DNA of 64,000 bases from positions 174,951 through 238,950 of the forward strand of contig CAZLKB010000003.1 in the NCBI GenBank assembly GCA_964560005.1. Reading direction: 5' to 3'. Source of the stretch: an uncultured Gammaproteobacteria bacterium. GTDB taxonomy: Bacteria; Patescibacteriota; Patescibacteriia; Patescibacteriales; GWC2-42-12. The notes under the pieces were generated by a model, which saw nothing but the letters and a program-made list of their open reading frames with translations, was not told the origin of the DNA and did no database searches. Positions 5,542-7,575 of this stretch are shown here, piece by piece (the stretch's first letter is position 1; each line of letters starts with the position of its first letter). A program made the position numbers and the translations under genes.

Positions 5542-7575
5542 ATGGCAAAAAAAACCAATGACAATTATTACGGCGCCGAATCAATTACCGTGCTTGAAGG
5601 CTTGGAGCCGGTGCGCAAAAGACCGGGCATGTACATCGGTTCTACTTCGGCGACAGGTTTACACCATTTAATTTGGGAAGTGGTGGATAACGGCATTGAC
5701 GAAGCCATGGCCGGACACGCTAATCTCATTAGAGTTACTCTGTTGGATAATGGCATGGTTGAAGTCTACGATAACGGCCGCGGTATTCCGGTCGGGATTC
5801 ATAAAGTAACGAAAGTTTCGGCTCTAGAAACGGTTTTAACCAAGCTGCACGCCGGAGGAAAATTCGGCGATGGCGGCGGCTATAAAGTTTCCGGCGGTCT
5901 GCACGGCGTGGGCGTCTCGGTGGTTAACGCTTTAAGCGAATATTTAAAAGCCGAGGTGCACCGCGAAGGCAAGATTTGGATGCAGGAATACGAACGGGGC
6001 AAACCGTTAAAAAAAGTCAAGCCCATCGGCAATTCAAAAAAAACCGGCACGATTATCACCTTTAAGCCTGATTCGCAAATTCTCGAAGAAACCGAATTCA
6101 ATTGGGGCACGATTTTAGATCGCTTAAGGCAACAGGCTTATCTAACCAAGGGTATAACCATTGAAGTGGTGGATCGCCGGAAAAACCACCGCCAAAAGAA
6201 TTACAAATTTTATTTCGAAGGCGGCATCAAGGCCTATGTAAAATCCTTAAACCGCAACAACCAGGTTAAAAACGATACTATCTTCTATATTGATAAAGAA
6301 GTCAGCGACACCCGGGTGGAAGTGGCTCTGCAGTATAATGATGGTTTTAACGAAACCGTGCTGGCTTTTGCCAATAATATTATAAACGCCGAGGGCGGCA
6401 CTCATGTTGCCGGCTTTCGCACGGCTTTAACCAGAACTTTAAACAGCTACGCCCGAGCGCAAAACTTGATTAAAGAAAAAGAGGAAAACCTGACCGGTGA
6501 AGATGTGCGCGAAGGACTAACCGCCATTATCAGCGTGAAGCTGACCAATCCGCAGTTTGAAGGCCAAACCAAGGGAAAATTGGGCAATGCGGATATTAAG
6601 ACCTATGTTGAGCAAATATTCGGCGATGCTCTGGCGGCCTTCCTCTCGGAAAATCCGCGCGAGGCTGAAGCGATTATCGCCAAGTGCTTTCTCTCGGCTC
6701 AAGCGCGTATCGCGGCCAGAACCGCCCGCGCTTCCATCTTAAGAAAGGGCGCGCTTGAAGGCATGACCTTGCCGGGAAAGCTGGCCGACTGTTCCAGTAG
6801 GAAGCCCGAGGAAAGCGAATTATACATCGTCGAGGGCGATTCGGCCGGCGGTAGCGCCAAGCAAGGCCGCAACCGGAAATTCCAAGCCATCCTGCCCCTG
6901 CGCGGCAAAATTTTAAATGTTGAACGCGCCCGCTTGGATAAAATGCTGGCCAACAACGAAATAAAAAACCTGGTCATAGCTCTGGGCGCTAATATAGACG
7001 ATCAATTTGACTTAGGGAAACTGCGCTACCACCGAATTATTATCATGACCGATGCGGATGTTGACGGCGCCCATATCAGAACCTTGCTGTTAACTTTATT
7101 TTATAGGCATTTTAATGCCATGATAGCCAACGGCAACCTCTATATCGCCCAGCCGCCGCTTTACCAGGTTAAAAAAGGAACTACGGTTAAGTACGCATAC
7201 TCGGACGATGAAAAAAATAAAATCGTCAAAGAATTCGGTGCTTCGGCCAGCTCAGCACAGGTGGAAATTGTTGAAGTTGAAGCCGGCGAAGAGGAGGCCG
7301 GCGAAGAACGGTTAAGCGAAGCGGAGGAAACAACCGCCAAAACCAAAGCCTCGGCGCGGATTAATATTCAACGCTACAAAGGCTTGGGCGAAATGAATCC
7401 CCAGCAGCTCTGGGACACGACCATGAACCCGGAAACCCGCATTATGATGCAGGTGAATGTTGATGATGCCGCCCTGGCCAATGAAACTTTTGAAATGCTG
7501 ATGGGATCGGATGTGGCGCCCAGAAAGCACTTTATCCAGACGCACGCCAAGAAGGTGGAAAATTTGGATATTTAA
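5542..7575 (+). CDS. gyrB: DNA gyrase subunit B
   Basis: GHKL ATPase motifs ([17 protein letters not shown]), Toprim [30 protein letters not shown]. Confidence 0.97.

Follow-up and report, generated by a model that had tools for sequence, protein, structure and literature searches.

In-frame insertion of hairpin-forming repeats into genes is a known phenomenon. Here we describe a GC-rich unit that is carried by gyrB, thrS and metG in a 64,000-nucleotide stretch of contig CAZLKB010000003.1 (subsequently designated the window), and which is unusual in its fixed length of 24 nt, its identity across phyla, its recurrent gain at the same site and the absence of any known machinery. The window belongs to a genome of the Patescibacteria (candidate phyla radiation, CPR), the closest named relatives being metagenome-assembled genomes (MAGs) of Parcubacteria and Falkowbacteria. 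For the GTAG- and CGTC-tagged repetitive extragenic palindromes (REPs), intragenic copies have been described, including copies in DNA replication/repair genes and in tRNA synthetases (Di Nocera et al. 2013, PMC3733652). REPs are small palindromes of 20-40 bp that fold into a stem-loop. Like the REPs of that survey (PMC3733652), the unit is a short GC-rich dispersed repeat of non-autonomous type with a putative stem-loop, some copies of which are read through in open reading frames (ORFs), and like the CGTC REPs it lacks a known dedicated transposase. However, neither a GTAG nor a CGTC end tag is present in the consensus of 79 non-redundant contexts or of 221 copies; CGTC is found only in a minor subfamily characterized by a CGAAC tail, where it lies on the opposite strand and at another place than in REPs. 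CGTC REPs possess a stem of 8-9 bp and a loop of 4-5 nt, while the unit has a stem of 4 bp and a loop of 11 nt with the sequence TCGRCARGCTC. Further differences to REPs are the fixed length of 24 nt, the occurrence of arrays with a 24-nt period and a sequence that is common to several phyla rather than lineage-specific. REPs are mostly extragenic and located downstream of ORFs in tandem or convergent arrangement, whereas the copies in the window are intragenic and copies elsewhere are not enriched between convergent genes. Finally, the unit sequence and the peptides encoded by it are absent from the supplementary lists of the REP survey (PMC3733652).

REPINs with their RAYT transposases (Y1 HUH, the gene often being flanked by the repeats) and the IS200/IS605 elements, which transpose as single strands by HUH enzymes, resemble the unit with its putative hairpin in having a hairpin-defined substrate, no target-site duplication and non-autonomous copies, which in their case are served in trans by a single enzyme. 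REPINs are inverted REP doublets that are vertically inherited and lineage-specific, in contrast to a single weak hairpin in many phyla, and IS200/IS605 elements have two different end hairpins and a strict target of 4-5 nt, in contrast to a weak GA^T(C) preference without associated gene. Rickettsia palindromic elements (RPEs; Ogata et al. 2000) reportedly measure about 100-150 bp and occur only in Rickettsia. The unit shares with them the palindromic character, the in-frame location in essential protein-coding genes and the tolerance in surface regions of proteins, but differs by its length of 24 nt, its presence in many phyla and its Patescibacteria host. In yeast mitochondria, mobile GC clusters and "byp" elements are short GC-rich hairpins that invade coding regions of an AT-richer genome, and ribosomes bypass the byp inserts, whose lengths cannot be divided by three. 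Apart from belonging to another domain of life and having other sequences, these elements differ from the unit, which is a stop-free insert of eight codons and presumably translated. No description of the unit family was found in the searchable, incomplete literature using DNA strings, their reverse complements and the peptides; conceptual searches yielded REPs, RPEs and transposable elements of the miniature inverted-repeat type (MITEs) only.

On the comparative evidence presented in the following, the motifs in the window are likely inserted copies of a dispersed non-autonomous 24-nt GC-rich repeat. The copies and their host genes, with Pfam domains in parentheses and carets marking the borders of the unit, are:

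7239-7262, plus strand: 24-nt unit in gyrB, GG^TGCTTCGGCCAGCTCAGCACAGGT^G, encoding (G)ASASSAQ(V), located in the linker that connects the Toprim and C-terminal domains
9572-9595, minus strand: 24-nt unit in thrS, GA^TGCTTCGGCTGGCTCAGCACAGGT^A, splitting an ancestral Glu codon and giving D-ASAGSAQ-V
49420-49443, minus strand: 24-nt unit in metG, AA^TCCTTCGGCAGGCTCAGGACGAAC^G, member of the CGAAC-tail subfamily, encoding N-PSAGSGR-T in a loop of the anticodon-binding domain
5542-7575, plus strand: host gene gyrB (HATPase_c, DNA_gyraseB, Toprim, DNA_gyraseB_C)
8134-9951, minus strand: host gene thrS (tRNA_SAD, tRNA-synt_2b, HGTP_anticodon)
49266-50726, minus strand: host gene metG (tRNA-synt_1g, Anticodon_1)

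A preliminary description of the window had reported related motifs in the sense direction of these three genes and had interpreted them as a mobile or recombinogenic sequence, an interpretation that is supported by our data and was largely right. Pattern searches and Pfam confirmed the motifs and the genes, respectively. The exact pattern GCTTCGGCYRGCTCAGCACAG matched the window only at 7240-7260 of the plus strand (GCTTCGGCCAGCTCAGCACAG, in gyrB) and at 9574-9594 of the minus strand (GCTTCGGCTGGCTCAGCACAG, in thrS), and the looser core CTTCGGCNNGCTCAG added 49427-49441 of the minus strand (CTTCGGCAGGCTCAG, in metG) as well as three weaker sites. The latter, at 26702, 29767 (a conserved GroEL segment) and 32410, were rejected as chance or native sequence. 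The same codon phase had been noted for the three copies and is borne out by the peptides ASASSAQ (gyrB), ASAGSAQ (thrS) and PSAGSGR (metG), and their assignment to variable linker regions holds according to alignments of homologues and to a structure alignment of ThrRS. The similarity of the gyrB and thrS motifs, which had been recognized over 22 nt, is in fact longer and comprises 22 of the 24 positions of the units (TGCTTCGGCYRGCTCAGCACAGGT); the metG and thrS units agree at 17/24 positions. All three copies are intragenic single units without tandem neighbours. The gyrB unit (7239-7262) and the thrS unit (9572-9595) are separated by 2.3 kb, in inverted orientation to each other and with identical codon phase. 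A hypothetical recombination event involving both units would flip the segment between them and fuse GyrB and ThrRS in frame. The metG variant GGCTCAGGACGAACG (49420-49434, minus strand) presumably equals 15 nt of the 5' ends of many 16S rRNAs, covering the last part of the 27F primer site and bases downstream of it.

Comparison of orthologues, which had been proposed as a check, revealed polymorphism for presence of the unit at the gyrB, thrS and metG sites. Among 120 homologues of thrS, the motif was detected only in the query and in P0001 (90% identical), while the rest reads LKK.GE-K.VSYYKL. The empty site of P0002 has the sequence GGC GAG AAA and the filled site of the query reads GGA GA[T GCT TCG GCT GGC TCA GCA CAG GT]A AAA, amounting to a clean difference of +24 nt. 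The Glu codon is split by these 24 nt, which explains the change of E to D...V. In the ThrRS structure 1NYQ from S. aureus, the segment aligns to a gap. ThrRS of P0006 carries a unit of the same family at another site, G[DPSASLGQV]F, and a further site is occupied in P0030 and its relatives, NS[DPSAGSGQA]KL, where GA^CCCTTCGGCAGGCTCAGGACAAGC^T stands against the empty GAT. The N-terminus of thrS contains a second GC-rich insert (9901-9930, minus strand; CCCACCTCCGCTAAAGCTTCGGTGGACAAG) encoding PTSAKASVDK, which is present in the query, P0002, P0012, P0015, P0016, P0026 and P0037, and absent from P0001, P0003 and most other homologues. This appears to belong to another family of inserts, with the pattern ..AKAS(A/V)(G/D)K.

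GyrB carries the motif at the linker position of the query in only 8 of 118 homologues (P0121, 122, 128, 131, 139, 141, 145 and 150); in a neighbour-joining (NJ) tree, motif-bearing sequences are scattered over at least five clades. In the remaining homologues the site mostly shows GGGK(A/E)E, with GGG-E in some of them (P0207, P0228). The gyrB junctions fit an insertion into GG^G GAR, a context that is present in P0207 and P0228. The motif is found at a different position of the linker in P0147, and P0178 and P0181 read the unit in another frame, yielding ALRQAQGG. A related CPR GyrB, P0153, comprises 1110 aa and contains an intein domain (PF14890). In metG, six close relatives (P0241-243, 245, 251 and 256) possess the unit in variously decayed form, as opposed to 113 of 120 homologues that are without it and read E-DKK-EIK or similar; one homologue is truncated before the site. 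Filled and empty metG alleles differ by +15 to +18 nt, and therefore 2-3 codons must also have been lost. DPSAGSGQAP in the MetRS proteins of P0287 and P0353 was considered as a further insertion and rejected, because relatives have native GSAGQAP at this place. Target-site duplications, another proposed check, were seen in none of the filled/empty pairs, which comprise thrS, the second thrS site, metG and the tail-sheath gene treated below. The idea of a mobile inserting sequence gains support from presence and absence at three sites, from the +24 nt pair in thrS, from the unrelated contexts of the copies in many phyla and from repeated gain at identical sites, and it is from such comparative data that we infer movement.

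Orthologous gyrB units of the query and its closest relative differ at 6/24 positions, similar to their flanks, and in gyrB relatives GCG CAA GCG replaces GCA CAG GCN. The metG peptide has drifted to AAKSGQ, PSTSSGQ or LLASSGQ in relatives. Judged from these substitutions, the gyrB and metG copies erode after insertion as neutral sequence would. The thrS units of the query and P0001 are distinguished by a single codon change, GCT to ACA (three adjacent bases), which turns one family-typical variant into another, and about half of the flanking codons differ; in thrS, unlike gyrB and metG, conservation of the unit thus exceeds that of its flanks. With only two differences, the gyrB and thrS copies of the window are closer to each other than are the orthologous gyrB copies with six, which points to a recent origin or to homogenisation inside this genome. 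Such proximity, along with the TG/CA stem and the ...CAGGT tail, both rare, that the two copies have in common, would also fit a purely local event, in which one member of the inverted pair served as template for the other through gene conversion or template switching and no dispersed element is involved. We regard this scenario as unlikely, since it leaves the metG copy unexplained, and equally the ileS copy of GCA_030650415.1 (L038), which is the closest sister genome and harbours units in thrS and gyrB as well. It does not account for same-family inserts at other thrS sites in relatives and for the wide distribution of the unit either. Such a local event may still contribute by homogenising copies.

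Recurrence at a single site was observed in a gene encoding a non-contractile tail-sheath/DUF2460 protein (Pfam), which is located on viral contigs. For this gene, 74 empty alleles (...GAT GCN CTG CGG...) and 6 filled alleles (...GAT GC[CCCTTCGACAGGCTCAGGACAGGG]N CTG...) were obtained. The base following the unit is G, C, C, C, T and C in the six filled alleles and corresponds to the third position, which is variable, of the Ala codon that the unit splits. Therefore, the insertion point is fixed, the length is exactly 24 nt and nothing was duplicated or lost. In a tree calculated from 800 nt of flanking sequence, the filled alleles occupy four separate positions among the empty alleles. Their flanks diverge by 12-28%, but the unit is identical in five of them and differs by one base in the sixth. 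This pattern indicates, as far as can be judged from the alleles, repeated and target-specific gain at the tail-sheath site; very short conversion tracts or selection at the nucleotide level are less likely alternatives.

The unit can be written as 5'-NNCT-TCGRCARGCTC-AGN'N'-CAGGN-3', i.e. a 4-bp stem enclosing the conserved 11-nt loop is followed by a 3' tail of 5 nt, adding up to 24 nt. Since this is exactly eight codons, the frame is never broken. Alignment of the 79 non-redundant contexts showed a sharply bounded conserved block, gaT-GCTTCGGCARGCTCAGCACAG-Gct, beyond which the flanks are random, and boundaries were also sharp in the 221 copies, which derive from a scan without constraint on the outer two stem pairs. 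Most frequent are CCCTTCGACARGCTCAGGGCAGGC and TCCTTCG...AGGACAGGC, while the TG/CA form of the window represents a rare subfamily. At the outer stem positions most copies are complementary (CC/GG, TC/GA, CA/TG, GG/CC, TG/CA, GT/AC, TA/TA). Covariation of the stem was quantified in 147 non-redundant units: 42 cells were changed on both sides of a pair as compared to 14.9 +/- 2.6 after shuffling, and 0/500 shuffles reached 42. Flank preferences are weak in both sets, with G at about 50% and A at 32-59% on the 5' side, and T at 48-53% and C at 38-41% on the 3' side. GA^A, GA^T, GC^N, AA^G and GG^G were seen as insertion targets, and a register after the second codon base fits every CPR site.

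A conserved loop with a covarying stem could also be the signature of a functional cis-element that is selected in place, for instance a DNA or RNA hairpin bound by a conserved protein or an element with an effect on mRNA stability or processing. The thrS unit with its single changed codon amid strongly changed flanking codons and the identity of the unit across tail-sheath lineages with diverged flanks would fit this idea. We nonetheless give it little credence, as most orthologues do without the unit, synonymous sites decay in gyrB and metG, and intergenic copies neither show an orientation bias nor concentrate downstream of genes. Moreover, the fold is weak and Rfam 15 assigned no family to the units in the window or in 18 unit-carrying loci. 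A hammerhead-like reading of CUGAUG...CGAA contexts in Proteobacteria was also considered and dropped, as the core does not fit and Rfam returned no ribozyme match.

The preliminary description had further proposed that the sequence inserts into coding DNA, in one preferred frame. Restriction to coding DNA did not stand up, as more than half of the copies found elsewhere lie outside long ORFs. The preferred frame is real: among copies spanning long ORFs, (P/A)S.(G/S)S(G/A)Q is read in 22/38 cases of the TG/CA set and in 40/81 cases of the general set, in which the other four open frames account for 8-12 copies each. Inside genes, sense and antisense copies are present at a ratio of 90:30. These frame and strand counts rest on ORF-length heuristics rather than on gene calls. 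Intergenic copies, of which 28 lie between divergent, 16 between convergent and 52 between tandem genes, exhibit no orientation bias relative to the neighbouring genes, and for this reason the frame bias is more likely to result mainly from selection on the encoded peptide than from a property of insertion.

Selection on the peptide can also be taken further, namely to convergence on a flexible (A/P)SAGS(A/G)Q linker without shared origin at the DNA level. Indeed, the sites are surface loops or linkers, and some native MetRS sequences (GWDGSAGQAPK, for example) look similar to the peptide although no clear insertion is visible in them. However, the nucleotides themselves are identical, synonymous positions included. 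The unit is also found outside coding sequence, within a MITE and in other frames such as ALRQAQGG of GyrB P0178, more than half of the copies found elsewhere being non-coding or in other frames, and in both the metG and the gyrB lineages the peptide is decaying freely. Convergence therefore appears very improbable.

Whether the motif exceeds chance was addressed within and outside the window. When codons were shuffled, a 22/24 sense-sense match between two genes arose in 2/25 windows, and pairs with 19/21 identity numbered 7 in the window as compared to 2.1 +/- 1.5 in shuffles. Statistics of the window alone are thus only suggestive with respect to motif similarity, and the decisive evidence comes from outside. 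A collection of species-representative genomes (one genome per bacterial and archaeal species, 596 Gb) was searched on both strands. The 21-mer GCTTCGGCNNGCTCAGCACAG was present in at least 118 genome stretches, as opposed to about 4 expected by our own arithmetic assuming equal base frequencies, which contradicts the chance frequency that had been named as the refuting outcome. Carriers among the matches listed include Chloroflexota, Bacteroidota, Fibrobacter, Planctomycetota, Kiritimatiellia, Auribacterota and several Proteobacteria, and, within the CPR, Parcubacteria, Falkowbacteria and Peregrinibacteria; the listed Bacteroidota comprise isolates of Chryseobacterium, Pedobacter and Psychroflexus. 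A second scan with fixed loop, inner two stem pairs and CAGG tail (CTTCGRCARGCTCAGNNCAGG) but free outer two stem pairs detected the unit in 86 viral contigs (complete scan) and in at least 120 metagenome contigs.

Head-to-tail arrays with a 24-nt period were found, seven copies being present in L219, and also in L250. In contrast to a minisatellite generated by slippage, the window units are single and have no head-to-tail neighbours; slippage acts on the unit in the arrays elsewhere but does not explain dispersed single copies. In Chloroflexota loci (L007, L017, L020, L033, L087 and others), the 24-nt unit is part of an internal hairpin of a multi-copy MITE, which is about 250 bp long and has 17-bp terminal inverted repeats of its own (CAGCAATTCTCAATTTA). 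Unlike MITEs, the unit itself has neither terminal inverted repeats nor target-site duplications. It also differs from the DNA uptake sequences of the USS (uptake signal sequence) and DUS (DNA uptake sequence) types, which occur about once per kb in one lineage, by having 3 copies in 64 kb and a motif found in many phyla.

Chance resemblance of low-complexity Ala/Ser/Gly linkers in three genes, for which the matches in codon-shuffled controls and the three other loose window matches (chance or native) might be quoted, is thereby rendered exceedingly improbable, given that the exact 21-mer is over-represented many-fold in other genomes within unrelated flanks and that indels among orthologues coincide exactly with the block of similarity. 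An artefact of sequencing, library or assembly, for instance an oligonucleotide resembling an adapter or a join at k=21, might be suspected as many carriers are MAGs and 21 nt is a common minimum assembly k-mer, but can be practically dismissed in view of the isolate genomes with the unit, its presence at one and the same orthologous site in studies and data sources that are independent of each other (NCBI, JGI, ENA, Logan), lineage-specific point changes in the copies and reading frames of conserved genes that are always left intact.

For the dispersed repeat, which we thus prefer as explanation, a mechanism can be envisaged in which the unit would be copied from other copies by a trans-acting machinery recognizing loop and stem. 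The most plausible candidates would be a nuclease/transposase of the HUH type acting on single-strand DNA hairpins, or a process of template switching or templated repair; an HUH-like mode specifically is possible but rather doubtful. Insertion would proceed with a weak preference for a GA^T(C) target and, given the length of eight codons, could never shift the frame. Among the inserted copies, selection would then mainly retain those that are read as (P/A)S.(G/S)S(G/A)Q, i.e. as small residues, and lie in surface loops of the host protein. The copies in the window genome are probably passengers without a function of their own. A 24-mer that is identical across phyla while inserted copies decay would imply a conserved copying machinery. 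Going one step further, the unit might represent an active, previously undescribed class of 24-nt micro-insertion elements, common to distant phyla and to phage or gene-transfer-agent genes, for which a loop-specific trans machinery would insert copies at GA^T-like sites without duplication and generate 8-residue loops in conserved and even essential proteins. This extended proposal is tentative, and we hold it to be somewhat less probable than its negation.

Several observations weigh against insertion of a mobile repeat. Movement is not directly observed, and the copying enzyme is only postulated: clustering of 4,225 ORFs located within 3 kb of copies revealed no recurring partner except generic ABC ATPases and histidine kinases. 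The predicted stability of the hairpin equals that of shuffled sequence, with z at about 0 both as DNA and as RNA. BLAST searches with a dimer of the unit gave 0 matches in 5,426 E. coli genomes, 0 matches in a collection of cultured phages and only 2 matches in plasmids (Sphingomonadaceae), the family thus not being universal. It is also difficult to see how a selfish 24-mer could be the same in different phyla unless it spreads horizontally or is recognised by something very conserved. Filled and empty alleles of gyrB and metG do not differ by a clean 24 nt; gyrB needs a shorter ancestral allele, for which the GGG-E alleles provide a precedent, and metG needs extra small deletions. In addition, recurrence at the same site could instead reflect short-tract recombination between relatives, and the NJ trees are crude.

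If the insertion of a dispersed repeat is the true explanation, the unit would provide a concrete and recurrent source of the small insertions that separate orthologues of essential proteins, among them gyrase and aminoacyl-tRNA synthetases, and it would explain many doubtful "hypothetical proteins" and odd peptides in metagenome annotations. A shared 21-24-mer can also seed misassemblies, false signals of recombination or horizontal gene transfer, and artefacts in alignments of marker genes. Should the copies be passengers only, the finding in the window would be ordinary in kind and comparable to an intragenic REP or RPE.

Further repeats are present in the window. AT-rich heptamer arrays, (AATTTTC)n, lie in intergenic regions upstream or downstream of several genes (16493-16570, 18030-18160, 38043-38110, 41667-41719 and 50736-50868). 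An AT-rich intergenic repeat of about 60 nt with AAAATGTAAAATTAT and TGACA boxes occurs in both orientations at 18938-19057, 27188-27308, 30624-30737, 38605-38766 and 51613-51717, and may represent a shared promoter or operator architecture. The sequence GGGGGTTAGGGGGATTT is present three times on the plus strand, at 10061, 42064 and 44718, the latter two copies following a CCCC...AAAGGGGG hairpin. Two related imperfect palindromes of 71-76 nt, at 32702-32777 and 56262-56332, share ACAAATCTACAAATCGGCTACGAATA... Families of short TGTCATC...GATC hairpins (TGTCATCCTGAACTTGATTCAGGATCTA, AGATCCCGGGTCAAGCCCGGGATGACAA and TCTGTCATCGCGGGCTTGACCCGCGATCCA) are found at 7580-7609, 10661-10690, 34864-34890, 35878-35905, 35918-35946, 49231-49258, 54344-54371 and 54385-54412, one of them residing directly 3' of the gyrB stop codon. 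Also downstream of gyrB, at 7630-7667, the perfect 38-nt palindrome AAAATGAAGGCGAGGAAATATTTCCTCGCCTTCATTTT is located, which by its sequence is probably a bidirectional terminator.

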